DNA of 64,000 nt from an uncultured Muribaculaceae bacterium (GTDB taxonomy: Bacteria; Bacillota_I; Bacilli_A; RF39; UBA660), in NCBI GenBank assembly GCA_964549115.1, contig CAZJTX010000001.1, forward strand, positions 56,494 through 120,493, read 5' to 3'. Below, in pieces: positions 30,491-59,448 of this stretch. The position numbers and the translations under genes were made by a program. The notes beneath the pieces are model-generated. The model was not told where the DNA came from. It made no database searches and worked only from the letters and a program-made list of their open reading frames with translations. Each line of letters opens with the position of its first letter. The stretch's first letter is position 1.

Positions 30491-30520
30491 AAAAAGAACA
30501 TCTTTTTTTTGATGTTCTTA
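30491..30520 (-). terminator. rho-independent terminator
   Basis: AAGAACATC-T8-GATGTTCTT. On the minus strand it is followed by a T-rich tract. Separates the 30518 gene from the 28407 gene. Confidence 0.55.
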
Positions 30521-31045: not shown

Positions 31046-31103
31046 AATTCACCTATCCTTAATATACCACATTATTTATTAACTAACAATTATATTGACA
31101 TCT

Positions 31104-32000: not shown

Positions 32001-32002
32001 AT

Positions 32003-32557
32003 TTAATCTTCCTTCTTTTGCCAGCTATTTATATTTAATTGAATAAAATCTGCTAAATCTTGATATTGTAAATCATTATACTCTTCTGGAAATATTATTT
32101 TAAGTTTATATACGTCTTCCTTAGCTAATTTATATTGTAGTAACATATTATCTGTTTCGCATACTAACTCATTTTTGTCATTACGATCAAAATCATCTTC
32201 ATTACAATCCATTACTAAAGTCTCAGTTTCATCTTCAACATTATATAACAGGATTTCTAGTGGAATGAAATGATATGTTTTTATAGTAATTTTATACTCA
32301 ACATCAATATCACTCAATTTGCTATCTTCATTATTTTTAACATTAAATATATATTCTTTTTCCATACCTGGTGAAATATTATTAACCGGCAATTCAAAAT
32401 CCTCCACTGTGCTTGCTTCAAATACAAACTTAGCAAAGCTAGGATTATCTGACTCCATTACAATTCCACTTTTAAAATATGAGTATGTTGCTCCGGCTCC
32501 TATACTTAAAAGGTTTAAAAATACTATCATAAATATTATTTTATATTTTCTTTTCAT
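32003..32557 (-). CDS. TasA/camelysin-like small secreted protein
   Basis: 184 aa. Signal ending GAGATYSYFKSG (the GTyAyFsD consensus). YIFNVKNNEDSKLSDIDVEY matches the TasA FQFENNGSL block. Confidence 0.6.
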   Translation of the reverse strand: MKRKYKIIFMIVFLNLLSIGAGATYSYFKSGIVMESDNPSFAKFVFEASTVEDFELPVNNISPGMEKEYIFNVKNNEDSKLSDIDVEYKITIKTYHFIPLEILLYNVEDETETLVMDCNEDDFDRNDKNELVCETDNMLLQYKLAKEDVYKLKIIFPEEYNDLQYQDLADFIQLNINSWQKKED

Positions 32558-32560
32558 ACA

Positions 32561-36326: not shown

Positions 36327-37844
36327 TTAACTAACAATTACTTTTAATAATCTATGACCCCAGTTTTCAGCTGCATCTTCAACAGAATATAGTACGTAGT
36401 ATGTTCCTGCTTTCGCTAAGTTTACTGTTCCTGCTTTTGTTACGTCAGCATCTGTTAGATTTGTATCCACATTATCAGTTACTTCAGCTTCTGGTAACAG
36501 ATCTTCTAAGTCTCCTTCTGTACCTAACGCTATTTCAATTTCATCATTTTCTAAATATGAGCCATCTCCAGCTAAGAATTTAATTTCTGGTGCTGTTGTA
36601 TCTGATGCTCCAGGTCCTGCTCCTTGGTTAAGTGCTGGTCCTTCATAGCCTGAATCTCCAGGATATAGTTGTTGTTTTGAGAATCCAAATTTAACTGAAA
36701 TTTTTCTTCCAATTGCTGCAAAGTCATAGTTATCTATGTCTTGTCCTTCTAGGTATATGTATACTCTTACTTTAGTAATACTTGCTGGTTCAAGTCTCAT
36801 GAATTCTGGTCTTAATCTACCTCTCATTAATTTCATTGTATCTGTGAAATATTCAAATTCTTCTACGAACTCGCTATTAGCTTCGTATGTATTAAATGCT
36901 TTACCATCATAAATGTTAACGTTATCACCTGATCCAATTACTTTTTGCGCTACATATGTTGGATAACCAATACCATCTATCACTTCTTCACATTCGCCAG
37001 AATATGAATCTGTTTTAGTAACATCCGCACCTGTTCTTGCCGCACAGTTGGTTGCATAATAACTTATTGCATGAGTCTCATGATTTCTATCATTTGGTTC
37101 CCAAATTTGTGCATCTCTACAAATTCCAGTTACGTTATCATCACCCGTACAAGTAATTCCCGTTACAACTTCTGCATCTAATTCTTCTAATGCTGAAACT
37201 CTTCCGATTTGAGCAAATGCTACACGTACTGAGTTTTCAATTCCTGAACCTGCTACGCCGCCGTCTCCTGCATCTGGTGCCGATTCTTCAGTTACAGTTA
37301 CCGATGAATCAGGAGCTAGATAAATTGCTTCTTCGCCTAAAATATCTAGAGCTTTTAGATATTGATTACCTGAGCTATTTTTAACAAATAAATCAAATAC
37401 AACATATCCATCTGCTTCTTTATCACCTTTATTTTGAACTTCACTAACCATTAGTCTTAGTCCACCCGGTGTTCCTTCCGGTACAGCGGTTAAACTGGCT
37501 TTTTCATATAGAACTAGTCTAGATGAGGTTTGATCAATTTTACCTGCCGTTGACATTGGTATTAAACCACGTCCAGCCCAATTATTAGTATTACCTTCAT
37601 AGACAGTATCGGTGTCGTTAAAGGTTTCCTTACTAATTGCTACTGTTGTGTCAAAATTCTCGCCGTCAAACGATAATAACAAGCCATCAGCTGCTGCTAT
37701 TTCAATATCGAACGATGTTACGTTGACTGTTTGCATTCCTATAAACCATGCAAATGTTGCTACCAATAATACGATTGCACTAAGTGCACTAATACCTATT
37801 AGGTTTCTAACCCTTTTAGAGTGTTGAGGGTTTTCTTTTTTCAT
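36327..37844 (-). CDS. paralog A of the FAWFIGMQ/WLEGQD surface-protein family with C-terminal DUF5011 Ig-like domain
   Basis: 505 aa. Anchor …LLVATFAWFIGMQ. Shared motifs IPMSTAGKID, GYVVFDLFVKN, SVRVAFAQIGRV, GICRDAQIWEPND, KVRVYIYLEGQDIDNYD and SVKFGFSKQ. C-terminal Ig-like block TAPEIKF…GTYYVLYSVEDAAEN. Confidence 0.6.
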   Translation of the reverse strand: MKKENPQHSKRVRNLIGISALSAIVLLVATFAWFIGMQTVNVTSFDIEIAAADGLLLSFDGENFDTTVAISKETFNDTDTVYEGNTNNWAGRGLIPMSTAGKIDQTSSRLVLYEKASLTAVPEGTPGGLRLMVSEVQNKGDKEADGYVVFDLFVKNSSGNQYLKALDILGEEAIYLAPDSSVTVTEESAPDAGDGGVAGSGIENSVRVAFAQIGRVSALEELDAEVVTGITCTGDDNVTGICRDAQIWEPNDRNHETHAISYYATNCAARTGADVTKTDSYSGECEEVIDGIGYPTYVAQKVIGSGDNVNIYDGKAFNTYEANSEFVEEFEYFTDTMKLMRGRLRPEFMRLEPASITKVRVYIYLEGQDIDNYDFAAIGRKISVKFGFSKQQLYPGDSGYEGPALNQGAGPGASDTTAPEIKFLAGDGSYLENDEIEIALGTEGDLEDLLPEAEVTDNVDTNLTDADVTKAGTVNLAKAGTYYVLYSVEDAAENWGHRLLKVIVS

Positions 37845-37897
37845 ACTTTTTTCTCCTTCTTTCCTTTATTTTGAATAGTCTCTCTACTATTATATTA

Positions 37898-37925
37898 ATT
37901 TTATCATATCATTTGATTTTGTCAA
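37898..37925 (-). promoter_or_regulatory. sigma-A-type promoter of paralog A
   Basis: On the minus strand: TTGACA, a 16 nt spacer, then TAAAAT. The same architecture recurs upstream of paralog B. Confidence 0.35.
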
Positions 37926-37938
37926 TATTATTTGACGT

Positions 37939-39576
37939 TTATTCTGTTTTTTGAGTCTTTAATATTTTATTAGTTTCAGTTACAAACCAAATTTGTTCAA
38001 CATCGATTTTACTTTCTTCTATTATTTTTATTCTAAGCAGTAAATCCAGTTTCTCTAAAAGTAAATCAATGTCGCCTTCTTCAAAGTCCTCTTCTGTAAC
38101 ATTTATGTTTTCTAATCTATATTTATTAACTATAGTACTTTTCAAGTTATTATCTTCAAATACTAAAGCTCCTTTTGTAACAATGTTTGTTGTTTCTTTA
38201 GCGTAAGCATCAAAGTTATCGCTAATTTTCATTAAATCAGAATATGTTTCTAGGTCCATTAATTTTTTAATTACATCTTTTTTATAATAAGAATGGCTAT
38301 GATAAAAGTTCATTAATTCCGAAATAGTTAGAGCCTTGTTTAACATTGATAATACATTTATTGTGAAAAACTCATTATCTTCCTTTATATATAGATCATA
38401 TGTTAAATTAGCTAACTTATTAGACTCAATTTTTAATTGTTTTACTTCATAATTAGTCTTATTATCATTTAAGATTGTATCTTTTTTAAATATAGTATTG
38501 TTAATCTTTGCTAATTTACGTTCGTTCTTTTTAATGTCTTTGTTAATCTCTTTAATCTTTTTTAAATGTAAATTAACTCTTTTTTTGTCTCCAATTTGTT
38601 CTAGTTCTTTTATATATTCTTGTTTAAAATTATTTACAATAGGTAAAAAAGTCATATAATTCTTTAACTCAACTACATTTGTTCTTAGTTTTTCTACTGA
38701 AGAATAAAACTTTTCCAATTTTTGTTTATCATCCATATCCAATGCTTCGATGGATAGTGTTGTATATGCTGAAGTTCGGTTTTTACTTTCTTCAAAGAAA
38801 CTATTAACATCAGCTTCTCCGCTTTTAGCTAAATCAATTATGTCCCAAATAGTTTCGTTTTGAGTTAATAACAGTTCTCTTGAAGCTTCTTTTAGTTTAT
38901 CAATACATTCTTGATAAGTTTTAATCTTTTCAGCTTGCATAGACTTTGTTTGTTTATCTTTGATATAAGCATCAAACTTTTTGGCATTATCTTTTACTAA
39001 TTTTCTAAAAGTTAATTCTATGTGTTTTACTATTTCTGGGTTTAACCAGTATATTTGTTCAAACACTTTATTTAATTTAGTGAAATTCTTTTCTTCTTGG
39101 GATCTTTCTTTTAAGAACGCTTTCATGTAATCATGTACATATGAGGTTAACTTAAAGTCCGATGACACTAATTTAATATCAACTTTTTCAAATATTACTA
39201 ATAAGTCTTCTAATATTCGATTAAGTGATTTAAATTCAAAATCAGTATAATTGCTTAACTCATAGAATAAATTATCAAAATTTAATTTTTCGTAATATGT
39301 ATTACTTGGGTTAAGTAACATTTTTAATTCTTCAAGTTTTTTAACCTTTTCAATTAATTCTTCATTTTTACGAGATTCTTTTTTAGATAGTATTTTTTTA
39401 GTTTTAGCTTCTAAATATCTTTTTACTTGATCTTCATATTCTTCGTATTTAGCATGTATTTCATCTATCTTTTTATTTTTATTCTTTTTATTAGTTTTCG
39501 TTCTAACAGGAAGAGATGTTATTAAGGTGGTTTTAGCAGCTATATCTTCTTCTATAAACTCTAAAAAATTACTCAT
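37939..39576 (-). CDS. cytoplasmic coiled-coil protein
   Basis: 545 aa. No TM helix or signal peptide. K/E-rich heptad-like segments. Embedded between surface-protein paralogs. Confidence 0.4.
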   Translation of the reverse strand: MSNFLEFIEEDIAAKTTLITSLPVRTKTNKKNKNKKIDEIHAKYEEYEDQVKRYLEAKTKKILSKKESRKNEELIEKVKKLEELKMLLNPSNTYYEKLNFDNLFYELSNYTDFEFKSLNRILEDLLVIFEKVDIKLVSSDFKLTSYVHDYMKAFLKERSQEEKNFTKLNKVFEQIYWLNPEIVKHIELTFRKLVKDNAKKFDAYIKDKQTKSMQAEKIKTYQECIDKLKEASRELLLTQNETIWDIIDLAKSGEADVNSFFEESKNRTSAYTTLSIEALDMDDKQKLEKFYSSVEKLRTNVVELKNYMTFLPIVNNFKQEYIKELEQIGDKKRVNLHLKKIKEINKDIKKNERKLAKINNTIFKKDTILNDNKTNYEVKQLKIESNKLANLTYDLYIKEDNEFFTINVLSMLNKALTISELMNFYHSHSYYKKDVIKKLMDLETYSDLMKISDNFDAYAKETTNIVTKGALVFEDNNLKSTIVNKYRLENINVTEEDFEEGDIDLLLEKLDLLLRIKIIEESKIDVEQIWFVTETNKILKTQKTE

Positions 39577-39707
39577 GATTCTTCCTCTTCTATTTTAGAA
39601 TCTTCTAATGTTTTAATAAATTCAACAATGTCATTATATAGTTTAATTAAGTCAGTTAAACTTAATACTGACATGTCATAATCAACTTTTTTTACTTCCT
39701 TTTTCAT
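39573..39707 (-). CDS. small ORF (44 aa) translationally coupled to the coiled-coil gene
   Basis: MKKEVKKVDYDMSVLSLTDLIKLYNDIVEFIKTLEDSKIEEEES. RBS GGTGGA lies 5 nt upstream. Its TGA stop overlaps the ATG of the downstream gene (ATGA). It is below the ORF-track length cutoff. Confidence 0.4.
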   Translation of the reverse strand: MKKEVKKVDYDMSVLSLTDLIKLYNDIVEFIKTLEDSKIEEEES

Positions 39708-39801
39708 CTATCCACCTTTTATCCTTAAATTAATTAAGGGCAACCAACTAGATTACCCTTAATAATTTTATATTTCTAACATAATCAATAGTTAGTATTT
39801 A

Positions 39802-41319
39802 TTAACTTACAATAACTGTTCTATAAACTCTAACAGCTCTGTTTCCTGCCCAGTCACTTACATCATAAGCTACGTAATATGTTCCTGCTTTAGATGTATC
39901 TACCGGATTTATAACTTGGATTCTATATGTTATGTCACCGTCAACATCATCTTCTGCTGTTGCGCCCGCATCAATATAGTCATCATTTAAATCAACGTTT
40001 ACTGTTTCTTCGCCTTCTAGTGTTATAACTGGTTTTGTTGTGTCTTCAACTTCTGGACGAGGTCCCTCATAACCGAAGTCGTCTCCAGTCATTCTTTGTT
40101 TTGTAAATCCAAATTGAACTGATATTCTTTTACCGATAAATGATAAATCATAGTTATCAATATCTTGACCTTCTAAGAAAACATATACTCTTACTTTAGT
40201 AATACTATTTGGAGCAAGTGTCATGAAAGCTGGTCTATTAACACTTTGTAAATCTCTATGTGTGTCTGTGAAATATGGATATGCTTTTAATTTATTATTT
40301 GTTATTGCTTCCATGTGTCCGTTATAAGCTTCACCATCATAAACGTTTACATGATCTGATACTGTTATAACATCTTGTACAGCATATGTTGGATAAGCTG
40401 CATCTTCTTCAATTAATCCACATGCGTTTTCCGAATATGAATCTTCATCATATACATCTATATCTGGAGTTTCGTCTACTCTTTCTCTACAGTTTGTTTC
40501 ATAATAATTGATTGCGCTTACAACGTGCTTTGTATCATTTGGTTCCCAAATTTGTGCATCTCTACAAATTCCGGTTATTCCATTATCAACATCAGGTTGT
40601 CCACCGTCTCCCACATTACATGTGATTCCGGTAATTTTATCTTGATCAGTTTCGGTTCCGATAACTCTTCCGATTTGAGCAAATGCTACTCTAATTGCGT
40701 TTTCAATGCCTGTATCTTCTTCTCCAGCTTCTGCTACTTCAACTTTTGAACCTGCACCTGCTTCAACGCCTTCATCTCTGTCTGTAATTAGATAAATTGC
40801 TTCTTCGTCTAAAAGATCTCTATCTTCAATATAAGCTGTTGATCCAGTATTTTTCACAAATAAATCAAACGCCACATAACCGGCTTGTTCCGTTTGGCTT
40901 TGTTCGTGGTTATTTACTCGACTACTAATTAATCTAAATCCACCTGGTCCTGTTGCTGGTACTGGTGTATGACTTGCTTTTTCAAACAATTTTAGTCTTG
41001 AAGCTTCTAAGTCAATTTCACCTACTGACGACATTGGAATTAAACCATGTGTTCCGCCCCAACTATTAGTGTTACCTTCATATGAATCTATATTAAAATT
41101 ATCTTCATTTATAGTAACTGTTGTGTCCCATTTCCTTCCATCTAATGATAGCATCAGGCCATCTACAACTGCTACTTCAATATCGAATGAAGTTACAGTA
41201 ACTGTTTGCATTCCTATAAACCATGCAAATGTTGCCACTAATAAGACAATTGCACTTAGTGCACTTATACCTACTAGATTTCTTACACGATTATCGTGTC
41301 TTTGATTTTTCTTGTTCAT
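39802..41319 (-). CDS. paralog B of the FAWFIGMQ/WLEGQD family with DUF5011 domain
   Basis: 505 aa. The N-terminal 80 aa are about 80% identical to paralog A. Same motif set. C-terminus PVITLEG…GTYYVAYDVSDWAGN. Confidence 0.6.
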   Translation of the reverse strand: MNKKNQRHDNRVRNLVGISALSAIVLLVATFAWFIGMQTVTVTSFDIEVAVVDGLMLSLDGRKWDTTVTINEDNFNIDSYEGNTNSWGGTHGLIPMSSVGEIDLEASRLKLFEKASHTPVPATGPGGFRLISSRVNNHEQSQTEQAGYVAFDLFVKNTGSTAYIEDRDLLDEEAIYLITDRDEGVEAGAGSKVEVAEAGEEDTGIENAIRVAFAQIGRVIGTETDQDKITGITCNVGDGGQPDVDNGITGICRDAQIWEPNDTKHVVSAINYYETNCRERVDETPDIDVYDEDSYSENACGLIEEDAAYPTYAVQDVITVSDHVNVYDGEAYNGHMEAITNNKLKAYPYFTDTHRDLQSVNRPAFMTLAPNSITKVRVYVFLEGQDIDNYDLSFIGKRISVQFGFTKQRMTGDDFGYEGPRPEVEDTTKPVITLEGEETVNVDLNDDYIDAGATAEDDVDGDITYRIQVINPVDTSKAGTYYVAYDVSDWAGNRAVRVYRTVIVS

Positions 41320-41374
41320 CTTTCTCCCTCTCTTTTGTGAACTTTTGTAAAGTCCTCTTTTCTACTCTAATTAA

Positions 41375-41402
41375 AGTTTATCACATTACCATTTTTTGTC
41401 AA
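41375..41402 (-). promoter_or_regulatory. sigma-A-type promoter of paralog B
   Basis: On the minus strand: TTGACA, a 16 nt spacer, then TAAACT. It is embedded in the same TTTGTCAATAaTAaTTGAC element found upstream of paralog A. Confidence 0.35.
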
Positions 41403-41430
41403 TAATAATTGACACAAATTAAAGTCTTTT

Positions 41431-42450
41431 TTAAAAATCTATATACCCCGCTAAGTCTTTTAATAAATCTATAGCAAGGAATATTGGTGCCCCCTCTGAG
41501 TTTGTTTCCAAACTATCTATATCTTGACCTTCTAACCAAACATAAATTCTCATTTTAGTAATTCCATTTGGTATTTGAAATATTGGATCAATGAATTGAG
41601 ATTCCATTATTGTTTCTTGAAATTGGAAATGTTCAGTATCTAAAGGTATTCCCGATCCTTCATGACCATTGGCATACTCTAGTCTTCTACCTTCTTTTAT
41701 AATAGCGTATGTGGGTGATATTTCTCCATCTACTAATGTAACACCATAATCTGTATAAGCTCTTTCTATTGAAAGCGGTGAATGTTTTATTTTATTTGGT
41801 TCATATATAACTGCCGCACAATCATTATTACATTTCAAGTTTTGAATATTTCTTATTTCATCATTTGATGAAGTGCTTCCTATTTTTAAAAATCCGAACC
41901 TTATAGAGTTAATAATACCATCCATCTCTATTCTTGATTCTTCATCCACGTCATCACCAAAATCTATATATGTTCCCTCATCTATATATAAGTTGTCGCT
42001 TTTAGGTGAACCACTCACATTTTTTAAAAATATATCAAATGCTAAATATGATTTATATAAATTAGATGAGTCCTCTGGCATATGAGCAGTATTTAAGAAA
42101 CGGTAAAGTTTCCTATCTTTATCTCTTGCTTTAACTAATGTTCCTTCATATATTTCAAACTTATCTTGGTTGGGATGCTTTATCCCTATTGTAGATATTG
42201 GCCACAGTCCTTTAGCAGCCCATTGATTAGTGTTCGTTGGGTATCTTGTTTTTAAATTATCTATAATTGATTTTGAAGTAATTTCGACCGAATCTGAAAA
42301 ATCGATTCCGTCTAAAGAAATAAATAAACCACTATTACTAGATACGTTCATTTCAAAGAATTTAATTTTAACATTCAAAGAAACAGAAAACCATGCATAA
42401 GTAACAAAGATTAGAAGCACTGTTGTTAAAAACAGTAGTGCTAAAACCAT
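41431..42450 (-). CDS. paralog C (short, no DUF5011) of the same family
   Basis: 339 aa. Contains FVTYAWFSVS, GLWPISTIGI, SYLAFDIFLKN, INSIRFGFLKIG and KMRIYVWLEGQDIDSLE. The ATG at 42450 has no SD. A non-canonical ATA start at 42504, 5 nt after AGGAG, would add a basic N-terminus as in the other paralogs. Confidence 0.5.
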   Translation of the reverse strand: MVLALLFLTTVLLIFVTYAWFSVSLNVKIKFFEMNVSSNSGLFISLDGIDFSDSVEITSKSIIDNLKTRYPTNTNQWAAKGLWPISTIGIKHPNQDKFEIYEGTLVKARDKDRKLYRFLNTAHMPEDSSNLYKSYLAFDIFLKNVSGSPKSDNLYIDEGTYIDFGDDVDEESRIEMDGIINSIRFGFLKIGSTSSNDEIRNIQNLKCNNDCAAVIYEPNKIKHSPLSIERAYTDYGVTLVDGEISPTYAIIKEGRRLEYANGHEGSGIPLDTEHFQFQETIMESQFIDPIFQIPNGITKMRIYVWLEGQDIDSLETNSEGAPIFLAIDLLKDLAGYIDF

Positions 42451-42512
42451 TGGCTTTTCTTTAAATTTATTTTTAAGATCTTTTAATTTTACTTCTTTTT
42501 TTATGATAACTC

Positions 42513-43955
42513 CTAATCTTCTACTATGACTGTTCTAATAACTTCTTCTGCCCAGTTACCTGCCCAGTCTCTTACGTTGTATCTAACTACATATGTACCC
42601 TCTACATTTGTATTTACATGGTTTTGAACAACAATATGTTCAGTTATATCTCCTTCTAAATTATCATCTGCCGTTGCACCTTCATCTGTATATGTCGAAC
42701 CAGTTGCTATACGTACAATCGGGTCTCCTATTAATGTAATTACAGGAGGAGTAACGTCTCTTGCTGGTGCTATATCTGGACCATCATAATCGAAGTCTTC
42801 CTCGGTTAAACGATCTTTGGTAAATCCAAAATGAACTGATATCCTTTTACCTATTGCAGCATAATCATAATTGTCAATATCTTGACCCTCTATATAAATA
42901 TATACCCTTACTTTAGTAATACTATTTGGTGCAAGTGTCATAAATGTTGGTCTTCTAACACCAGGCATATCTCTGTTTGTATCTGTAAAATATGGATATT
43001 TCATAACTTTAGGACTTGGAGCATAACTGTTATATTCTTGACCATCGTATATATCAACATTATCTGATGACATTAATTCTTGTCTTATAGCATATGTCGG
43101 ATAATATGTTTCATCTTCTAATTGGTGACACTTATCTGATGAATATGCTGTTGGCATATGTATTTGGGTTCCTACCCTTCTTCTACATGTTGCATCATAA
43201 AATTTAATTGCGTTTTCAACATGATATATATCATTTGGTTCCCAAATTTGACCTATTCTACAAATTCCTGTAATGCCGTCCTTAATTGAAGGAACTCCAA
43301 CATCATTCGCGTTACATGTTATTGATGTAATTAACTCTTGATCTGTTACAGCTGCTGATACTCTTCCGATTTGAGCAAAAGCTACTCTTACTGAATTTTC
43401 TATACCAGTATTTGCTATACCAGTCTCGGCAACATTAACTTCTGATTCAATAGATAAGTATATTGCTTCTTCATTTAATACATCGTCTATTTCAAAATAT
43501 TTTGGTCCCGAGAAATTTTTAATAAATAAGTCAAACGCTACATAACCGTCCGCTTCGGCTTCACCAGTATTGTGAACTCTACTTGCCATAATTCTATGTC
43601 CACCCGAAGTAGCTGTAAAACTAGATTTTTCAAAAAATACTAGCCTTGATGAATTAACATCAACTTCACCAATAGTAGACATTGGTATAAGTCCTCTTCC
43701 ACCCCACCTATTCGTATGTCCTGGATAAGACACTTCATCTACTGTTTCTTTAGTTATGCTCACAGTTGTGTTCCATTTTTTACCATCAAGTGACAATAAC
43801 AAACTATCCGTTGCAGCTATTTCAATATCAAATGATGTCACACTAACTATTTGCATTCCTATAAACCAAGCAAATGTTGTTACAAGCAATAATATAGCTG
43901 TTATTGTTGTAACTGTTATTAATTTCTTTAATCTTTTCGTATCTTTTTTAGTCAT
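42513..43955 (-). CDS. paralog D with DUF5011 domain
   Basis: 480 aa. Contains TTFAWFIGMQ, GYVAFDLFIKN, KVRVYIYIEGQDIDNYD and PVITLIG…GTYVVRYNVRDWAGN. Confidence 0.6.
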   Translation of the reverse strand: MTKKDTKRLKKLITVTTITAILLLVTTFAWFIGMQIVSVTSFDIEIAATDSLLLSLDGKKWNTTVSITKETVDEVSYPGHTNRWGGRGLIPMSTIGEVDVNSSRLVFFEKSSFTATSGGHRIMASRVHNTGEAEADGYVAFDLFIKNFSGPKYFEIDDVLNEEAIYLSIESEVNVAETGIANTGIENSVRVAFAQIGRVSAAVTDQELITSITCNANDVGVPSIKDGITGICRIGQIWEPNDIYHVENAIKFYDATCRRRVGTQIHMPTAYSSDKCHQLEDETYYPTYAIRQELMSSDNVDIYDGQEYNSYAPSPKVMKYPYFTDTNRDMPGVRRPTFMTLAPNSITKVRVYIYIEGQDIDNYDYAAIGKRISVHFGFTKDRLTEEDFDYDGPDIAPARDVTPPVITLIGDPIVRIATGSTYTDEGATADDNLEGDITEHIVVQNHVNTNVEGTYVVRYNVRDWAGNWAEEVIRTVIVED

Positions 43956-43965
43956 TTGCTATCTC

Positions 43966-45405
43966 CTATTCAACTATTACAGTTCTAGTAACTTCATCTG
44001 CCCAGTTACCTGCCCAGTCTCTTACGTTATATCTAACTATATATGTTCCTGTTTCCGCAGTGTTGACAGGATTATTTACAACTATATAAGGAGTTATATC
44101 TCCGTCTATATTATCACTTGCTGTTGCACCTAAGTCGTCATATGTTGATCCTTGATTAATAGTTATTTCATCTAAACCATTTAATAATATAATTGGTTTA
44201 ATTGTATCTCTTAGAGGTTCTAAATTCGGTCCTTCGTATCCAATATCGTCTTCAGTAAATCTTTGTTTTGTAAATCCGAATTTAACTGATAATTTTCTTC
44301 CTATTGAAGCATAATCATAATTATCTACATCTTGACCTTCTAAATATACATATACTCTTACTTTAGTAATACTATTTGGAGCCAAATACATAATAGGTAG
44401 TCTTTCAACACCTTCTAATTCTTTATCTGTATCTGTAAAATAAGGAACGCTAAATAACTTAGTACTACCCTCATATGTATTATATGCTGGTCCATCGTAT
44501 ATATTTACATAATCACTTGATGCAATAGGTTCACTAACTACATATGTTGGGTACGCTACTCCATCAACTATAGGATTACAAGTTCCACCATAAGATTCTG
44601 GTAATCTTGAATTTCCTCCAGTTCTTTTTAAACAATGAGTATCATACCAATCTATAGCTCCCGCCACGTGCTTAGTATCATTTGGTTCCCAAATTGATGC
44701 AGCTCTACATATTCCTGTTACTCCATCAACTATACTAGGTTTACCTTCTCCATCTGGATTACATGATATAGAAGCAATTTTTTCTTGATCTAATTCTGTA
44801 CCTATAACTCTTCCGATTTGAGCAAAAGCTACACGTACCGAATTTTCTAGTCCTGTATCTTCAACTCCACCATCTATAGCAACTTCTACAGATGAATCAA
44901 CAGATAAATAAATTCCTTCTTCATCTAATAAATTATATTCTGGAGTATAAGCACTTCCTGTCATATTTCTAACAAACAAGTCAAATACTACATAACCATC
45001 TGCTTCTTTGTCTCCTGTATTTTCTACTCTACTTGCCATTAAACTATGGCCACCAGGTATAGCAGTTATTCCTGCCTTTTCAAAAAGCATTAATCTAGAT
45101 GTATTCACATCAATTTGTCCAATTGTTGACATCGGTTCTAATCCGCCGCCTGACCACCAATTAGTATGATTTGGATATGATACATTTTCTAAATTTTCTC
45201 GGTTAATACTTACCGTAGTATCCCAGCTCACTCCATCTAGTGATAATAATAAGTTTTCAGCTGCTGCAATATCAATATCAAATGATGATACCATTACTGA
45301 TTGCATTCCAATAAACCAACCAAATGCAGTAAAGATTAATACTACCGCACTTAAAGCCATTAGAATCAACTGACGTCTTATTTTAATTGTACTTTCTTTC
45401 TTCAT
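43966..45405 (-). CDS. paralog E with DUF5011 domain
   Basis: 479 aa. Contains TAFGWFIGMQ, GYVVFDLFVRN, KVRVYVYLEGQDVDNYD and PIILLNG…GTYIVRYNVRDWAGN. Confidence 0.6.
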   Translation of the reverse strand: MKKESTIKIRRQLILMALSAVVLIFTAFGWFIGMQSVMVSSFDIDIAAAENLLLSLDGVSWDTTVSINRENLENVSYPNHTNWWSGGGLEPMSTIGQIDVNTSRLMLFEKAGITAIPGGHSLMASRVENTGDKEADGYVVFDLFVRNMTGSAYTPEYNLLDEEGIYLSVDSSVEVAIDGGVEDTGLENSVRVAFAQIGRVIGTELDQEKIASISCNPDGEGKPSIVDGVTGICRAASIWEPNDTKHVAGAIDWYDTHCLKRTGGNSRLPESYGGTCNPIVDGVAYPTYVVSEPIASSDYVNIYDGPAYNTYEGSTKLFSVPYFTDTDKELEGVERLPIMYLAPNSITKVRVYVYLEGQDVDNYDYASIGRKLSVKFGFTKQRFTEDDIGYEGPNLEPLRDTIKPIILLNGLDEITINQGSTYDDLGATASDNIDGDITPYIVVNNPVNTAETGTYIVRYNVRDWAGNWADEVTRTVIVE

Positions 45406-50679: not shown

Positions 50680-51822
50680 TTACCTAAATATCATATAACT
50701 TAAAAACGCGATTAATATAATTAATGCAATGCTTGCATTAATTTTTTCTTGCTTAGAAGTTTTATCAACTATACCAAATGATGCGGTTGATAAATACCCT
50801 CCTATTAATCCTCCTATATGTGCTGCTACATCTATACCAGGTATTAAAAATCCTAATGCTAAATTAATTATTACAATTGGTAATATTTGATTTTTTAGGG
50901 CATTAGATAAATATAATCTAAAATGAAACCCAAAATATAATAATGCTCCAGCTAAACCAAATATTGCACCGCTTGCCCCAACTGAAATATTGTTAGTAAA
51001 TAACACCGACATTAAAGAACCGATTATACCACTAACTAGGTATATACCCGTAAATTTCAATTTACCTATATAATTTTCTACTTGAGATCCCAACATATAA
51101 AGAGCATACATATTTATTGCAAGATGTAAAAACCCAGCATGTAAGAACATTGATGTTACCAATCTCCAAACTTGACCACTCTTAACTAGTGGTGCATAAT
51201 TTGCCCCAAACATAACTAACGTTATTGGGTCTTCTGATCCTTTTCCTAATATATAAGTAAGAGCAAACACTACTATACACAGGGCCATCATTATTTTTGT
51301 CATAATAATTCTTTTTGGTCTAAATATGTTTTCAAATACTTTATTACTCTTTTCAGTCTTATCGTTTATATCTGTTGTCATACTAAATAAATGATCAACT
51401 TTATCTATTTCTTTATTTATTTTTTTAGAAATTTCAGGAAAGGCAGTTTTTATATTATTTTGTTTTGTAAAATCTTTTATATTTTTAGCATTTATAGTTT
51501 CTATGCCTTTTGTTTTTGAAGGTTTAACATAATCACCTATGTTAACACAAATATTTAACGTATTAAAATTAAAAGATAATGTTTTCTTTTTTATTTGTTT
51601 TATAACATTTTCCACTTTTAAAACATCATATTCATATTGTTCACTATTATGAATATAATTATTATTTATTCTTATTACTTTATAAGGGCCCTCAAGATTT
51701 TCTAACCACACTTCGTTTTTAGAACCATGCACTATAATTGGAGAATAGTTTTCTTTTGTTACAAAATAATGAACTAAACTCATTACCATACCATCTTGGG
51801 GTCTTACTGAAATTGAATCCAT
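50680..51822 (-). CDS. rhomboid-family intramembrane serine protease with N-terminal cytoplasmic domain
   Basis: 380 aa. C-terminal six-TM core with GASGAIFGLAG (GxSG) and a His in AAHIGGLIGG. Confidence 0.7.
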   Translation of the reverse strand: MDSISVRPQDGMVMSLVHYFVTKENYSPIIVHGSKNEVWLENLEGPYKVIRINNNYIHNSEQYEYDVLKVENVIKQIKKKTLSFNFNTLNICVNIGDYVKPSKTKGIETINAKNIKDFTKQNNIKTAFPEISKKINKEIDKVDHLFSMTTDINDKTEKSNKVFENIFRPKRIIMTKIMMALCIVVFALTYILGKGSEDPITLVMFGANYAPLVKSGQVWRLVTSMFLHAGFLHLAINMYALYMLGSQVENYIGKLKFTGIYLVSGIIGSLMSVLFTNNISVGASGAIFGLAGALLYFGFHFRLYLSNALKNQILPIVIINLALGFLIPGIDVAAHIGGLIGGYLSTASFGIVDKTSKQEKINASIALIILIAFLSYMIFR

Positions 51823-53189: not shown

Positions 53190-54578
53190 TTATACTATCT
53201 CAGAACACACTTCTATAGTTCCGTACCAATTAAATTGAGTGAACAATAATTTAATTAAAATTGGCAAGAAAAACAATATTATAGTATAAATAAATCTTTT
53301 TAATGCTGTCGAGGAAGCTTTTTTGATTGCGTCATTATCTTGGGCTATAAGTGCCTTAAAGACATCCATAGAACTTAAAAGAAATAATCCGCCTATTCCG
53401 GCTATTCTAATAATATTTAATGTTAACTGTATCCAGTAAGCTGGATGACTTTTATCATCAGGTTCTCCAAATATAGCACCGCAAGATGCATCTTTTACTT
53501 CTAAATTTCCCAAATCAAAATACTCATCTAAAGTAACCAATAATACTTCATCCATATTTCCTTGGTTATCCAATAAGCCTTGAACTAATTCTGCTCCTGA
53601 TTCATCTCCGGCATCTGCCAATTCTTTAGCCTTCTTTTCAAGAACATCTAGAATCATTTCTTTAACTGATTTATCAGAAAGATAATCTTTACCCCTATAG
53701 ACTTCTCGTATCCAGTTTTTCATAAATTCAGGTAAAATTAACAAGTTTGTAGCGTAATCTTTTTTTATTCTTTCTTCTTGAACATTTATCAGTTCTTTAA
53801 ATATCGCCTCATATATTTCATCCGCAATTTGTTCTGAAGATTTTTTATCTTTTAAATCAGGATATAATTCTATGTATTTATCAAGTATTTTATCCATTGA
53901 TGGAGAAATAGAATTTTCAACAGATCTTTTAAAAGTTGTTTCTTCATTCACTTGCAACGGATGACCATCATGTTCAGGATGTATTCTCATTGATCCTGTT
54001 CCAATCATAGGAACACTCCAATACACAAACGAATCTTTACACACATTTGGAGCATCTGCAAAGCACTTTAAATTAGCATTATAATTGGTTTTTGATCTTG
54101 GTTCGGTATATGCCCAATCATCAAAATACACATTATTTGCACAAGAAAATCTTGTTATTCCATCTACCGTAGTAACAGTTGTAAGTTCTCCCGGTGTAGG
54201 ATCTGGGTCCAAATACATTTTTTTATAATAGTTATATGCTCCTCTAGGAAATGTACATTTACTATTAGTGTCAGAGTGACAACCTTCATCATCAACTCTT
54301 TTTTCAAATATAGCTCTAAAACTTGACGGACCTTGTGTATAATTCGAATTGTTCGGAGAATAAAGAGCAAAATAACCTATTTTTGTGTCATAAGGATCAA
54401 CCATATATAATATTTGCATAATATCTTCCGATGCACCAGAACTTCTATAAGTACATAATGGAATACACAATTTGTTTTGCACACAAGTTTCAAGATTTAT
54501 AGGCGTTACTGCATTTACTGTTTTGGGCAATAAAATTAGTAACAACAATATCGTTAAAACTCCAAATTTATTTTTCAT
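53190..54578 (-). CDS. secreted Cys-rich protein with conserved C-terminal two-helix membrane module (PAYWIQ…)
   Basis: 462 aa. Signal peptide. The C-terminal ~90 aa are homologous to the C-termini of the two NlpC/P60 paralogs. Confidence 0.45.
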   Translation of the reverse strand: MKNKFGVLTILLLLILLPKTVNAVTPINLETCVQNKLCIPLCTYRSSGASEDIMQILYMVDPYDTKIGYFALYSPNNSNYTQGPSSFRAIFEKRVDDEGCHSDTNSKCTFPRGAYNYYKKMYLDPDPTPGELTTVTTVDGITRFSCANNVYFDDWAYTEPRSKTNYNANLKCFADAPNVCKDSFVYWSVPMIGTGSMRIHPEHDGHPLQVNEETTFKRSVENSISPSMDKILDKYIELYPDLKDKKSSEQIADEIYEAIFKELINVQEERIKKDYATNLLILPEFMKNWIREVYRGKDYLSDKSVKEMILDVLEKKAKELADAGDESGAELVQGLLDNQGNMDEVLLVTLDEYFDLGNLEVKDASCGAIFGEPDDKSHPAYWIQLTLNIIRIAGIGGLFLLSSMDVFKALIAQDNDAIKKASSTALKRFIYTIILFFLPILIKLLFTQFNWYGTIEVCSEIV

Positions 54579-54615
54579 AATTACTCCCTTTAATTTATTA
54601 TACTACATATTTATT

Positions 54616-55485
54616 TCATTTTTTATTTACAATTAAACTTTTTATAAGTTTTTTATTATTAAAGATTACAATTTGTTCTTCAGCTAATCTAAAATTAAAT
54701 ATACTATCCTCTAATATTTCACCATCATAATTACATGGCATTATTTCTTTAGACCGTATAGTAACATTAGTGATTTGTTGTTTTTTTACATATTTTAAAG
54801 ATTCGTGTGTTCCCTTTACTAACTTGGTTATAGCATTAATTATCTGCGCCTTATTAATTCCTTCTATTGCATAAAAATCTAATACACTATTATCGACTTT
54901 CGCATTAAGTGCAATTTTAAAACCATTCCCATAATATCTACCATTGCAAACAGTAAGGATTGTATACTTTTTATAATTATCATTGTTTATAGAATATAGT
55001 TTGTTTTTATATTTGAAATAAGTATAAAGTATACTTTTTATATAAATGTTCGATGTATCTCCGGTTGTTTTTTTCATTTTGTTAGCATTTTTAGCTATTT
55101 CAGCATCTATACCCACAGAGGCTACATTAATAAAATATTTATCATTAACAATTCCCAGATCTGATTTAAAAACCTGTGGATGGTTTTTTATTGTTTTATA
55201 GAAATCATTTCCACTACCACCTGGTATTACCCCAAGCATAGCTGTACCTCCAACCATTCCATTTACTATTTCGTTTAATGTTCCGTCGCCACCAACTGAG
55301 TATATAACCTTAGCTCTGTTTTTATATCGTCTTGCAAGTTTTACTGAATCGCCTGCTTTTTTAGTGTAGGTTAATATCCAGTCCTTTTCTTTAATCATTT
55401 CTAGTTTATCTGCAATTAATTGGGCATTACCCCCACCCGCTAAAGGGTTAATAATAAAAACAATCACTTTATTATTTCTCCACAT
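54616..55485 (-). CDS. diacylglycerol/lipid kinase catalytic-domain protein (DAGK_cat, YegS/DgkB-like)
   Basis: 289 aa. Contains IINPLAGGG and GGDGTLNEIVNG motifs. Confidence 0.7.
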   Translation of the reverse strand: MWRNNKVIVFIINPLAGGGNAQLIADKLEMIKEKDWILTYTKKAGDSVKLARRYKNRAKVIYSVGGDGTLNEIVNGMVGGTAMLGVIPGGSGNDFYKTIKNHPQVFKSDLGIVNDKYFINVASVGIDAEIAKNANKMKKTTGDTSNIYIKSILYTYFKYKNKLYSINNDNYKKYTILTVCNGRYYGNGFKIALNAKVDNSVLDFYAIEGINKAQIINAITKLVKGTHESLKYVKKQQITNVTIRSKEIMPCNYDGEILEDSIFNFRLAEEQIVIFNNKKLIKSLIVNKK

Positions 55486-56654
55486 TCATTATTGTAATCA
55501 TTTCCATAAACTTTCATATACCCTAATAATAAATTAAGTAAAAGTGGTAAGAAAAACAATATAATAGTATACATAAATCTTTTTAAAGTTGTTGTAATTG
55601 CTTTCTTAGTTGCTTCATCATCTTGGGCAGATAATGCTTTTACTAAATCTATTGTACTAAGTAATAACAATGCTGCGATAGCTGCAATCCTTACAATATT
55701 TAAAGACATTTGAATCCAATAAGCAGGTTCAGCTTTATTATTTATATTTCCTAACATACCGTTACAAGCAAAATTTTCATCTATTGCAAGTGGAGTTAGG
55801 TGTAAATTTGCTTTATCATCTGTTTTTATTAAACTAATTATTCCATCATCTTCATCAGTAGGAGCACCAGTTATAAAAGAACCAGAATTTATTACTTTAA
55901 AAGAAAGTTTGCCACCCTTTCCTACAATGTCTCCACATTTCCAATCATTCCAACGAATATAATTAGTTTGTCTTTTAAGATTAGAACCATAAAAAGCATA
56001 ATTATATCCATCTATTGCTTGTAATTCCTTAGAAAAGTTTTGATATTTCATTTCATAAGCTAATTCTTGATTATATGTATAAGGTCTTGCACAACCTGGC
56101 ATTCTACCAGGCGACTTATATTTAGTTAGGTCATCTACTTGCACCGCACCTGTTCCTGATGTGGTTTGGTGAATAAAATTATCCCCACCTAAATATAAAC
56201 CAACGTGAGGCGCCATATCCAAACCCCATTTTTTATAATAATCTAAATACAATAAATCCCCTGGTTGTATATAGTTACAATCTATCATTAAGTTAGCATT
56301 TTTCATTGCTCTTACTGAACGTACAACACCCGTTCCTATTGCAGTATTAGTATATTTTGTATCAGCCCAATATAATCCAACTTGAGTTAAAGCATAATGA
56401 GTAAAACCTGTACAATCAAAACCAGTAAGACTGTGTCCTCCTAGTACATATTTTACGCCAATTTTAGAAACCCCAGCACACGCAATATGCTGACCTAATG
56501 TCTTAGTACCGGTGCCACCTCTAAAGCCGGGTTGACCACCTGGTATTGAAAATCGTTCTCCTGTTTCATCTACTACTAATTCAGCATTTACCACATTTAT
56601 AGCAAAGAACATTAATAACACAAATAATAACGATTTAATATATTTTTTATTCAT
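55464..56654 (-). CDS. NlpC/P60-family peptidoglycan hydrolase with C-terminal PAYWIQ two-TM module (copy 1)
   Basis: 396 aa. Signal peptide. Catalytic FDCTGFTHYA (Cys) and PHVGLYLGGDNFIHQT (His). The C-terminal anchor is homologous to the 53190 and 56826 genes. Confidence 0.7.
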   Translation of the reverse strand: MNKKYIKSLLFVLLMFFAINVVNAELVVDETGERFSIPGGQPGFRGGTGTKTLGQHIACAGVSKIGVKYVLGGHSLTGFDCTGFTHYALTQVGLYWADTKYTNTAIGTGVVRSVRAMKNANLMIDCNYIQPGDLLYLDYYKKWGLDMAPHVGLYLGGDNFIHQTTSGTGAVQVDDLTKYKSPGRMPGCARPYTYNQELAYEMKYQNFSKELQAIDGYNYAFYGSNLKRQTNYIRWNDWKCGDIVGKGGKLSFKVINSGSFITGAPTDEDDGIISLIKTDDKANLHLTPLAIDENFACNGMLGNINNKAEPAYWIQMSLNIVRIAAIAALLLLSTIDLVKALSAQDDEATKKAITTTLKRFMYTIILFFLPLLLNLLLGYMKVYGNDYNNECGEIIK

Positions 56655-56688
56655 TTCTTTATCCTTATTTAATTTATTATACCATTTT

Positions 56689-56772
56689 TTATTTTAATTT
56701 AATATCTATACCGTCTAAACTAAAACTTTTAACATCAGTTATGTAAACATCTATAATATTATCAACTTCTTT
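56689..56772 (-). pseudogene. duplicated 3' fragment of miaB (tandem-duplication scar)
   Basis: The reverse translation reads …KEVDNIIDVYITDVKSFSLDGIDIKLK*, which matches the true miaB C-terminus (NIIDVYITDAKSFSLDGIDIKLK*) at 58045-58125 with two differences. It is preceded by an in-frame TAA. Confidence 0.65.
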
Positions 56773-56825
56773 TTATACCGTTTTATCCACCATCTTTTTA
56801 ATATGTCCTAATAATAAAACAATTA

Positions 56826-58016
56826 CTATCTTATTTCTCCACATTCGGGATTAAACTCATTACCATAAACTTTCATATAACCAAATAGCAAATTAAGTAA
56901 TATAGGTAAGAAAAACAATATTATAGTATACATAAATCTTTTTAACGATCTAGTTATTGTTTTTTTGGTTACTGTATCATCTTGAGAAGATAACATTTTA
57001 ATTAAATCTATTGTACTAAGTAATAATAATGCTGAGACAGCCGCAATTCTTATTACATTTAAAGCCATTTGAATCCAATAAGCAGGATCCGATTTATTTC
57101 CTACATTTCCTAAAAGACCATCGCACGGAAAAGTTTTATCCATTTCAAGAGGTTTTAAATGCAAATTTGTTTCATCATCAATTTTGATTAATTTTATTAC
57201 TTCCGAATCAGAAGATGATCCCGTACTGGTTTGAATAGAATTTATTACTTCAAATGGAATTTTACCCCCTCTTCCAACAATTTCTTCACATTTCCAATCA
57301 TTCCAACGAATATAATTAGTTTGCTTTCTTAGACCAGAAACAGAAAACGAAAAATTATAGCCATCTATTGCTTGTGATTCTTTAGAAAAGTTTTGATATT
57401 TCATTTCATAAGCTAACTCTTGATTATAAGTATAAGGTCTAGCACACCCCACAATTTGTCCTGGCAAACTATAATGTTTAGATAATATATCAAATTGAAC
57501 AGCATTAGCATATGTAGATTCGGTCTGATGGATAAAATTATCCCCACCCAAAAATATACCAACGTGAGGAGGATTATCTGTAGCATACATTCTATAATGA
57601 TCTAAATATAATAAATCTCCTGGTTGGACATAATTACAGTCTTCCAACAACAAGTTTGCTTTTTTCATCGCTGCATACGATTGCACAACGCCATTTCCTA
57701 ATGAAGCCCCAGGATTGTTTGGAGATTCCCAGAATAAACCGACCTGAGTTAAAGCGTAATGAGTAAAACCCGTACAATCAAAAGCATCAAGTCTATGACC
57801 TCCCATTTCATAAGGTGTTCCAATTTTAGGAATACCCGCACATGCTATATGTTTGCCTAAAGTTTTGGTTCCTGTTCCACCTTTAAAACCAGATGCTGTA
57901 CCCGGAATAGAAAATCTTTCTCCAGTTTCATCCAACACTAATTCTGCGTTTACCATATTCATGGAAAACAACATTAATAATATAACCAATAATAATTTAA
58001 AATGTTTTATCTTCAT
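56826..58016 (-). CDS. NlpC/P60-family peptidoglycan hydrolase with C-terminal PAYWIQ two-TM module (copy 2)
   Basis: 396 aa. Roughly 65-70% identical to copy 1. Same catalytic residues and the same C-terminal module. Confidence 0.7.
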   Translation of the reverse strand: MKIKHFKLLLVILLMLFSMNMVNAELVLDETGERFSIPGTASGFKGGTGTKTLGKHIACAGIPKIGTPYEMGGHRLDAFDCTGFTHYALTQVGLFWESPNNPGASLGNGVVQSYAAMKKANLLLEDCNYVQPGDLLYLDHYRMYATDNPPHVGIFLGGDNFIHQTESTYANAVQFDILSKHYSLPGQIVGCARPYTYNQELAYEMKYQNFSKESQAIDGYNFSFSVSGLRKQTNYIRWNDWKCEEIVGRGGKIPFEVINSIQTSTGSSSDSEVIKLIKIDDETNLHLKPLEMDKTFPCDGLLGNVGNKSDPAYWIQMALNVIRIAAVSALLLLSTIDLIKMLSSQDDTVTKKTITRSLKRFMYTIILFFLPILLNLLFGYMKVYGNEFNPECGEIR

Positions 58017-58044
58017 ATCTTTATGTATTTTATTATAACATTTT

Positions 58045-59448
58045 TTATTTTAATTTAATATCTATACCATCTAAGCTAAAGCTTTTAGCATCAGTAATAT
58101 AAACATCAATGATATTATTAACATTATTTTTAGTAGTTTTAACATTTACTAATTTCATTGTATCGGTGTATCCATAAAATAAGGTATTATCTTTTTCGCT
58201 TTTACCCAATATTAAAACTGGTACAGTTTTATTTAATAACTTTTTATTATTTTCTAAAGAATATTTATTAACCAAATCATTAAGTTTGTATAATCTTTCT
58301 TTTTTAATTTCTAATGATATATTATCTTCCATTTTAGCCGCTACTGTATATTCTCTTTTTGAATATATAAAAGTATATGCCCCATCAAACTTACAATAAT
58401 TCACTAAATCTAATGTTTGTTTAAAATCCTCATCACTTTCATTAGGAAACCCAACTATAATGTCGGTGGTAATTGAAACATTAGGTATTTTATTTTTTAT
58501 TTTATCAAATAAAACTTTATACGATTCATTAGTATATTTTCTATTCATTTTTTTAAGTATTTCGTTACTACCTGATTGTACTGGTAAATGTATATAAGGC
58601 ATAATGTTTTTATATTTAGATATTACTTCGATTAACTCATCAGTAAAGTTCCAAGGATTTGATGTTACAAATCTAACTCTTTCTATATTAGTTTTAGCAA
58701 CATCTTCCAACAAATCAGAAAATCTATAATCCCCATCTTTGTACGAATTAACATTTTGTCCTAAAAGCGTTACTTCTTTATAGCCGTTTTCTTTTAAACA
58801 TTTTACTTCGTTTATTATTTCTTCTTTTTTTCTACTTCTTTCTTTTCCCCTTGTAAATGGAACTACACAATAAGTACAAAAATTATCACATCCATAAGTT
58901 ATATTAACCCACGCTGTAACATTAGAATCTCTTTTATACTGTATATTTTCAAATACTTCATTACTGTTTGAATATACCTGAATATTTAATTTCTTTTGTT
59001 TATTTATAATTAATTCAGGCAGTTCATGAATATTATGAGTTCCTATAATAATATCTATATATTTATGTTTTTTATTTAACTCATCTATTTCTTTTTCCAG
59101 CTGCATTAAACATCCGGCTAAACAAATTATAATATCAGAATTAATCTTTTCCTTTATATGCTTAGCTATTGATAAAAATCCAATGATTTTTTCTTTAGCA
59201 TTTTCTCTTATTGCACACGAATTAAGAACAACTATGTCCGCATCTTTCATATCTGTTGTGTTTTCATAACCTAGTTGTTCTAAATAATATACAATCTGCT
59301 CAGAATCATGAACATTCATCTGACATCCATAAGTTCTAATATAATACTTTTTATTTTTAACTATATTTTTTATATCATTATTTAACGTTATATAATTAGC
59401 ATCTAAATTATCTCTTTTTAGTGCATCTTTATAGTTTGGTTTACTCAT
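58045..59448 (-). CDS. miaB: radical-SAM tRNA methylthiotransferase (MiaB-like)
   Basis: 467 aa. N-terminal MTTase Cys triad (YIRTYGCQMNVHDSE…NSCAIRE…GCLMQ), radical-SAM CTYC and a C-terminal TRAM domain. MtaB or RimO cannot be fully excluded. Confidence 0.7.
   Translation of the reverse strand: MSKPNYKDALKRDNLDANYITLNNDIKNIVKNKKYYIRTYGCQMNVHDSEQIVYYLEQLGYENTTDMKDADIVVLNSCAIRENAKEKIIGFLSIAKHIKEKINSDIIICLAGCLMQLEKEIDELNKKHKYIDIIIGTHNIHELPELIINKQKKLNIQVYSNSNEVFENIQYKRDSNVTAWVNITYGCDNFCTYCVVPFTRGKERSRKKEEIINEVKCLKENGYKEVTLLGQNVNSYKDGDYRFSDLLEDVAKTNIERVRFVTSNPWNFTDELIEVISKYKNIMPYIHLPVQSGSNEILKKMNRKYTNESYKVLFDKIKNKIPNVSITTDIIVGFPNESDEDFKQTLDLVNYCKFDGAYTFIYSKREYTVAAKMEDNISLEIKKERLYKLNDLVNKYSLENNKKLLNKTVPVLILGKSEKDNTLFYGYTDTMKLVNVKTTKNNVNNIIDVYITDAKSFSLDGIDIKLK

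Follow-up and report, generated by a model that had tools for sequence, protein, structure and literature searches.

A VirB2-like pilin domain as C-terminal module of wall hydrolases and other secreted proteins in uncultured gut Bacilli

Why should two putative peptidoglycan hydrolases and a third secreted protein end in the same pair of membrane helices? The question is raised by a 64,000-nucleotide stretch of contig CAZJTX010000001.1 (positions 56,494 to 120,493; hereafter the window), deposited under the name of an uncultured Muribaculaceae bacterium. Three of its minus-strand genes, one coding for a protein of 462 amino acids (aa; 53190-54578) and two for NlpC/P60 proteins of 396 aa each (55464-56654 and 56826-58016), share a tail that the original prediction did not recognise and considered a possible anchoring or sorting domain. 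It is shown here that this tail of ~100 aa is a divergent VirB2-like pilin domain of the type IV secretion system (T4SS), belonging to the PF18895 lineage and serving as a C-terminal module. With moderate confidence, the proteins can be viewed as modular VirB2-like pilins of uncultured Bacilli, in which the hairpin formed by the two helices would anchor enzymes or adhesin-like domains and would probably dock them to the T4SS assembly.

The shared tail is a divergent T4SS pilin domain

The final ~100 aa of the three proteins align with 46 invariant columns, the identity of the module reaching 73% between the two NlpC/P60 proteins and 52% in comparison with the 462-aa protein. The three had been described as paralogs, a term that suits the two NlpC/P60 proteins, which are 66% identical in their N-terminal parts; with these the 462-aa protein shares only the type of signal peptide and the module, no N-terminal domain common to both being recognisable. 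A module profile searched against the six-frame translation of the window returned exactly three copies (E 1e-55 to 1e-60; next best match, E 0.08). These lie, on the minus strand, at 53193-53507 (final 105 aa of the 462-aa protein, Cys366 to Cys458, from the module alignment and profile), 55467-55781 (first NlpC/P60 protein, Cys297 to Cys391, from alignment, AlphaFold2 and hhalign) and 56829-57143 (second NlpC/P60 protein, Cys298 to Cys392, from alignment and hydropathy). Hydropathy analysis revealed in each protein an N-terminal signal-like segment of the Sec type, lysine-rich and then hydrophobic and ending in V-N-A. Two hydrophobic helices, located in the 396-aa proteins at about aa 313-343 and 359-383, were found in the tail, and between them a loop containing KK or KR. 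In both AlphaFold2 runs the module was modelled as a helical hairpin, with predicted local distance difference test scores (pLDDT) of 73-86. The 396-aa protein, folded from its single sequence, had an overall pLDDT of 37.6, and the 462-aa protein, folded with alignment A7, a mean of 66.9, with strands at aa 38-85, helices at 212-355 and the hairpin at 379-412/415-448. Alignment, hydropathy and structure prediction thus agree with the original prediction that the three secreted proteins share a C-terminal two-helix membrane module.

The same proteins were called, identical, on independent ENA and Logan contigs, and orthologous fusions are present in syntenic relatives (loci L013, L018/L019 and L020), which indicates that the fusion is genuine and not an artefact of assembly or frameshift. 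The module is therefore not a frameshifted separate gene in the window, a possibility considered at the outset, even though elsewhere it does exist as a separate gene.

Pfam and NCBIfam scans of the window proteins returned NlpC/P60 and DagK domains only, the module giving sub-threshold hits (DUF1980, Mbov_0396) that were not accepted as membership, and no PHROG match was obtained for it. Its description as unrecognised holds in the sense that no model of these two collections matches the window copies above threshold; it does not hold as regards relatives, which exist and identify the module as a divergent PF18895 member. A profile built from the three modules and searched against 5.8 billion proteins found only stand-alone small proteins of 117-152 aa (E down to 6e-27), in which a signal peptide is followed by a Cys, helix 1, a D-K-D-A-x-K-K-A loop, helix 2 and a C-terminal Cys. 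The window profile matches two of these small homologs, P0016 and P0013, at E 1.6e-9 and 3.8e-10, respectively. P0016 and a further homolog, P0018, score 29.6 and 28.7 bits against PF18895 (T4SS_pilin), the gathering cut-off being 26.6, and PF18895 is the top family among the short homologs (12 of 64 at E<=0.01). When the window modules were compared by hhalign with the PF18895-positive proteins, a probability of 99.1% was obtained (E 1.2e-18, 44% identity over 81 columns). Both flanking Cys are found in 175 of 179 module proteins and, together with a G, an R and the motif FF.P, are invariant across alignment A4. The hairpin region gave in addition weak matches to proteins of Mycoplasma integrative and conjugative elements, namely the pilin-like Mbov_0395 (NF045849), Mbov_0396 (NF045889) and MMCAP2_0566 (NF045848), far below the curated cut-offs (E 5e-4 to 3e-2; 14-20 bits versus 40-90).

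The reading of the tail as a T4SS pilin is based on these profile and profile-profile matches to proteins that pass PF18895, and on the fixed position of the stand-alone homologs at the head of T4SS operons, described below. These two lines of evidence also bear on whether the module would turn out to belong to a known anchor family, which it partly does through its link to PF18895. TrbC and VirB2 pilins are known to undergo head-to-tail peptide cyclisation. With VirB2/TrbC/TraA-type pilins (PF18895; also PF04956, TrbC/VirB2) the present family shares the signal peptide, the two-helix hairpin, the short basic loop and the proximity of its stand-alone genes to VirB3, VirB4 and VirB6. In contrast to such pilins, the window copies are C-terminal domains of proteins of 396-462 aa encoded outside T4SS operons, with a conserved Cys pair instead of peptide cyclisation. 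The window proteins are homologous to proteins passing PF18895 and have the expected signal peptide and two helices with a short basic loop, but they lack a direct PF18895 match, a location in a T4SS operon and the size of a hairpin alone, since 290-360 aa precede the hairpin, whereas a mature T4SS pilin has ~70-110 aa and consists of the hairpin only. For these reasons they were filed as modular C-terminal pilin-domain proteins and not as ordinary T4SS pilins.

Pilin genes and fused forms in T4SS operons

In relatives (loci L005, L008-L010 and L011-L012), the stand-alone homolog is the first gene of an operon that continues with genes for a VirB6/TrbL-like protein (704-897 aa), a VirB3-like protein (~104 aa), a TraC-like/TrsD protein, a P-loop_TraG VirB4, a wall hydrolase, a protein of ~260-290 aa and VirD4. 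A scan of JGI/ENA metagenome contigs yielded 61 loci, mostly from human gut, of which 56 have only 8-13 bp between the end of the pilin gene and the VirB6-VirB3-TrsD-VirB4 series, with VirD4 downstream where the contig permits. Four of the remaining five loci are cut by a contig end and one is on a chimeric contig. As a separate observation, the ORFs (open reading frames) that follow the low-GC pilin gene in L024 (600-2509) look high-GC when their translations are inspected by eye and resemble SpoIIP-like and GPR-like sporulation genes; L024 is probably a chimeric assembly.

The operon is chromosomal, being located between rlmH, UDG, LemA and two FemAB genes, with FemAB/MurJ genes adjoining the operons. 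Among the Pfam annotations available for its flanks (precomputed gene lists of the operon loci plus ten ORFs of L026), in which many genes carry no annotation, no relaxase or integrase domain was seen. Likewise, tblastn searches with the module and with P0016 gave no match in PLSDB plasmids or INPHARED phages (50,697 phage records). The family therefore emerges as a large group of pilins in Bacillota from human and animal guts, heading a conserved chromosomal T4SS operon.

The pilin domain is not confined to small proteins. When 1.84 billion cluster representatives were searched exhaustively with HMMER, 2,674 of them were retrieved at E<=1e-3 and 444 at E<=1e-10, and about 115 of the best 150 are proteins of 190-545 aa that carry the module 0-19 residues from the C-terminus. 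Among these best 150, the N-terminal parts of the long forms fall into many unrelated groups, almost none with a Pfam domain; the largest ectodomain group has 30 clusters, includes the 462-aa window protein and is characterised by a conserved Cys pattern followed by a variable helical stalk, and the only cluster with the NlpC/P60 fusion is that of the window. Two modules occur in one polypeptide in 5 of the 115 long proteins (e.g., P0037, P0065 and P0108), as in P0037, where one is internal and the other C-terminal. The view of the module as a dedicated anchoring or targeting domain is upheld by this grafting onto unrelated secreted domains, in which hundreds of different secreted ectodomains, wall hydrolases included, carry it at their C-terminal end.

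Fused forms were also found in the operon position of the pilin itself. In L016/L017, the gene directly upstream of VirB6 codes for the 451-aa P0105, an ectodomain plus module whose tail (CTEIIE) resembles those of the window proteins (CGEIIK and CSEIV), and no plain pilin is present in the operon. Just upstream of P0105 (L016, 8931-10007) there is a gene of the reverse design, coding for an N-terminal pilin-like hairpin and a C-terminal GDSL/SGNH hydrolase. In L022/L023 the slot is filled by P0048, a 347-aa protein with a different ectodomain, again with no plain pilin in the operon. Comparison of L022 with L026, which has the same neighbours (VirB4 91%, TrsD 86% and UDG 82% identical), showed that the same slot holds the 347-aa form in one and a 137-aa plain pilin in the other, with 70% identity over the module; it follows that an ectodomain was gained or lost within one orthologous pilin gene.

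Two recent reviews state that, Patescibacteria excepted, VirB2 and VirB5 have not been found in the T4SSs of Gram-positive bacteria (PMC12857230, PMC12102498). Patescibacteria (Ca. Southlakia epibionticum, TM7x) have small VirB2-like pilins in arrays, and these are essential (PMC12102498, PMC12857230). The operon of the low-GC gut bacteria resembles the Patescibacteria T4SS in layout, both being chromosomal MPF-FATA-type systems of monoderm hosts with TrsD, VirB4, VirB3, VirB6 and VirB2-like pilins, with multiple divergent pilin genes and no relaxase seen nearby. They differ in that the hosts here are Bacillota (Bacilli), and in that the Patescibacteria papers describe small arrayed pilins and not fusions to enzymes or large ectodomains.

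Ectodomains of the window proteins and their possible docking

The first 396-aa protein consists of a signal peptide, the NlpC/P60 domain (aa 66-176), a middle region without family assignment and the pilin module. The second, its tandem paralog, has the same organisation, with the NlpC/P60 domain at aa 66-167. Both match PF00877 well above its 23-bit cut-off (58.5 and 47.3 bits), and the catalytic Cys-His-His residues are intact, being found in the motifs DCTGF at aa 80, PHVG[LI][YF] at 149/150 and FIHQ at 160/161; in the first protein they correspond to Cys81, His150 and His162. The 462-aa protein has a signal peptide (aa 1-23) followed by a Cys-rich beta head (~aa 29-195, 53994-54494, minus strand), delimited by a conserved Cys pattern (C..C...C.Y ... 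CP..Y.D ... CF...C) in alignments A6/A7, and by a long acidic helical stalk or linker (aa 212-355, 53514-53945, minus strand), for which AlphaFold2 predicts helices with pLDDT 74-92. It belongs to no Pfam or NCBIfam family. Its N-terminal 365 aa used as query retrieved only their own cluster, in a word index too insensitive for such a fast-evolving domain, and a Foldseek search of the model against PDB and BFVD gave no match at E<=0.001. The Cys pattern of the head does recur in 30 representative clusters, among which the stalk varies in length and sequence.

Phage tail-associated lysins, enzymes that open walls locally, gave the best PHROG matches to the NlpC/P60 domain. From sequence comparison, such matches would be compatible with a local wall-opening role of the fusions, without constituting proof. 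They also are what favours the idea of a lysis cassette or prophage remnant, in which an endolysin-type NlpC/P60 enzyme would carry a holin-like two-helix tail. This explanation is hardly credible, considering that the module matches neither PHROG nor any of the phage records searched, that the flanking genes are housekeeping genes, that the same tail is present on the non-enzymatic 462-aa protein and that its homology to T4SS pilins is strong.

The mechanism proposed for the modular pilins can be outlined as follows. After Sec-type export, the hairpin would insert into the membrane with both ends outside, placing the Lys/Arg loop in the cytoplasm and the ectodomain at the exterior. The two Cys that are invariant in the family, one just before helix 1 and the other just after helix 2, would form a disulfide at the outer face and thereby clamp the hairpin, acting as a topological stand-in for the cyclisation of TrbC and VirB2 which, unlike the latter, would be compatible with an N-terminal ectodomain. 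The hairpin might then be recognised by the VirB6/VirB3/VirB4 platform, or co-assemble with the major pilin, so that the ectodomain would be held at the T4SS stalk or pilus or carried out on it. The NlpC/P60 fusions would in this way be locally targeted wall-cutting enzymes, acting on the producer's own wall or on that of a partner, and the 462-aa protein an adhesin-like minor pilin.

Precedents exist for parts of this design. PrgK, TcpG and CwlT are VirB1-type wall hydrolases of Gram-positive T4SSs. The domain types of such hydrolases include NlpC/P60 or CHAP (PMC12102498), and like the window enzymes they are membrane-tethered peptidoglycan hydrolases, acting locally for the T4SS. They differ in being anchored by an N-terminal helix and encoded within the operon, whereas the anchor here is the pilin domain, and in that the operons of the present lineage already encode a hydrolase of their own, of the M23/lysozyme or SpoIID/CHAP type. 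The PilB and PilC proteins of Streptococcus sanguinis are modular type IV pilins (bioRxiv 10.1101/2021.01.27.428410, PMC9934059) and offer a possible analogy, in that a polymerising or docking pilin module is joined to a bulky functional module displayed by the filament; they belong, however, to the unrelated type 4 filament superfamily, with a single N-terminal helix and class III signal peptide processing. No paper on pilin domains of the present family fused behind enzymes or large ectodomains was found in the literature.

Several points weigh against the T4SS-based interpretation. The window modules reach no Pfam or NCBIfam threshold (for PF18895, no match at E<=1 with the full proteins or at E<=10 with the isolated module), and no solved pilin was matched either by sequence, where profiles A2 and A4 retrieved from PDB only chance transmembrane matches (PsbI, rhodopsin), or in the fold search with the whole model. 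No homolog of VirB4, VirB6, VirB3 or VirD4 was found in a search that covered the 64-kb window and not the rest of the source genome, so that a T4SS of the source organism is putative. The gene of the 462-aa family stands in four genomes at a conserved housekeeping position between miaB and lspA, and not in a T4SS operon, and the stand-alone homolog P0004 adjoins a Hydrolase_2 gene with no T4SS gene within 10 kb. It would be difficult for a VirB2-type filament to accommodate an ectodomain of 300 aa on each of its subunits. Formation of a pilus by members of this family is a prediction, and both the disulfide and the docking step have the status of inferences.

Some of these points are also what would be expected if the hairpin were an exapted anchor, that is, a pilin-derived element that merely keeps the hydrolases and the surface protein attached to the outside of the membrane, independently of any T4SS. 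This is the main rival to docking and is regarded as possible though not probable. It would account for the lack of T4SS genes in the window, for the housekeeping location of the 462-aa-family gene and for the isolated P0004, and it would fit the tight packing of the genes with miaB, dagK, lspA and rluD, as in a constitutive operon. Simple anchors, however, conserve hydrophobicity and not sequence, whereas here the Cys, G, R, FF.P and Cys of the operon pilins are all kept and the modules are better conserved than the ectodomains. In addition, relatives have T4SS operons in which a fused form takes the place of the pilin, as described above.

Docking to the T4SS is accordingly preferred. A more ambitious extension of it, offered tentatively, is that VirB2-like subunits make up the stalk or pilus of a Gram-positive T4SS in uncultured gut Bacilli and that modular pilins add functions to it, which would present wall-breaching enzymes and adhesins to the cell's own wall or to a partner cell, the interchangeable ectodomains (NlpC/P60, GDSL hydrolases, Cys-rich adhesin-like heads and unknown folds) being distributed over more than 2,600 clusters. 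If this extension is correct, a pilin-dependent T4SS would for the first time be known from outside diderms and Patescibacteria, and peptidoglycan hydrolases would be delivered by a new route. If the fused proteins do dock, pilin-borne enzymes and adhesins could allow Gram-positive T4SSs to get through thick walls and to make contact with partners, the lineage would be a candidate for the donor of the Patescibacteria system or for its sister lineage, and several thousand "hypothetical" gut proteins could be annotated. Even as an exapted anchor only, the hairpin would represent a previously unrecognised and widespread anchoring domain.

The window locus and its relatives

The block formed by the module genes and a kinase gene has miaB, serS and suf genes to one side of it; lspA, rluD, a rhomboid gene and lexA lie to the other. 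The source organism is a low-GC member of Bacillota, the nearest named relative being Candidatus Onthocola stercoravium (Bacilli incertae sedis), with 75% identity in SerS. Locus L013 (CAYOJY010000030.1, 1-10275), syntenic with the window and also labelled "uncultured Muribaculaceae", contains spoIIGA together with sigE and sigG and, on this evidence, is probably a Bacillota contig that was binned wrongly. The sporulation sigma genes of L013, like the FemAB/MurJ genes near the T4SS operons, are in line with a host of this kind. The order of genes in the relatives is miaB-[406 aa]-lspA-rluD-rhomboid-lexA in L018/L019, miaB-dagK-spoIIGA-sigE-[404 aa]-sigG-lspA in L013, and serS-miaB-[one NlpC/P60-module fusion]-dagK-[469 aa] in L020, the closest relative, whose SerS is 89% identical to that of the window by local blastp and 90% by database search. 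The module-bearing proteins evolve much faster than their neighbours (25-50% versus 50-90% identity). Orthologs of the window genes were sought in the flanks of the T4SS loci and none was found.

The presence of a single NlpC/P60-module fusion in L020 implies that the hydrolase fusion is older than the L020 split and was duplicated in the window lineage. Traces of this event are found in the DNA, where an 83-nucleotide segment comprising the miaB 3' end and spacer (58016-58098) is repeated directly at 56660-56742 with 89% identity (repeat family D5, minus strand), and where further repeats (D1-D4) recur within the hydrolase gene pair at a spacing of 1353-1362 nucleotides. Since this copy of the miaB 3' end survives as a scar between the two hydrolase genes, they must have originated by tandem duplication of a unit of ~1.36 kb.

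The DagK-like gene reported among the module genes is indeed there, at 54616-55485 on the minus strand, and codes for a lipid kinase of the YegS/DgkB type (289 aa; DAGK_cat and YegS_C domains). Its start overlaps the end of the upstream hydrolase gene (55464-55485); there are two candidate starts, one giving 289 aa and the other 283 aa with an overlap of 4 bp, the latter being the call made in other assemblies. The suggestion that dagK and the module might co-occur elsewhere was not borne out: no DagK homolog was present within 10 kb in any of the 61 T4SS-linked loci, and none in L005, L006, L008, L011, L016, L018 or L022, so that L013 and L020, both syntenic with the window, are the only relatives with dagK near module genes. 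The L013 copy of dagK comes immediately after miaB and overlaps it, which suggests an older miaB-dagK pair. The overlap with the upstream gene, seen in both the window and L013, suggests in turn that translational coupling was kept after the insertion. DagK as a system component or functional link was rejected, the adjacency being explained by inherited gene order; a role of the kinase through pilus phospholipid, although attractive, was dropped on the same grounds.

The rhomboid gene (50680-51822), three genes away from the block, bears on a further explanation of the tail. Together with the position of the module at the extreme C-terminus, the conservation of this near neighbour, found in the order lspA-rluD-rhomboid in the window, L013 and L018, might point to a cleavable sorting signal, removed by a membrane protease such as the rhomboid with release or transfer of the ectodomain, comparable to what GlyGly-CTERM/rhombosortase or LPXTG/sortase systems do. 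Such a role is very improbable. No LPXTG, GlyGly or PEP motif was seen by eye and no Pfam or NCBIfam sorting domain was matched; instead of one helix with a basic tail there are two helices with conserved extracytoplasmic Cys and an acidic, Cys-containing tail. Moreover, the complete module stands alone in T4SS operons, where there is nothing to sort, and the T4SS-linked copies have no rhomboid nearby.

Two other regions of the window deserve a brief description. The minus-strand ORFs that form a block at 23929-36187 have hardly any Pfam annotation. Among their products are a protein of 1208 aa, one of 675 aa whose N-terminus weakly resembles S24/S26 signal peptidases, and a DUF2357 protein. 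At 36327-45405 there is an array of four paralogous proteins of 479-505 aa, each with a Bact_surface_Ig-like domain at its end, interspersed with proteins of 339 and 545 aa that have no Pfam match; this array is partly kept in L018.

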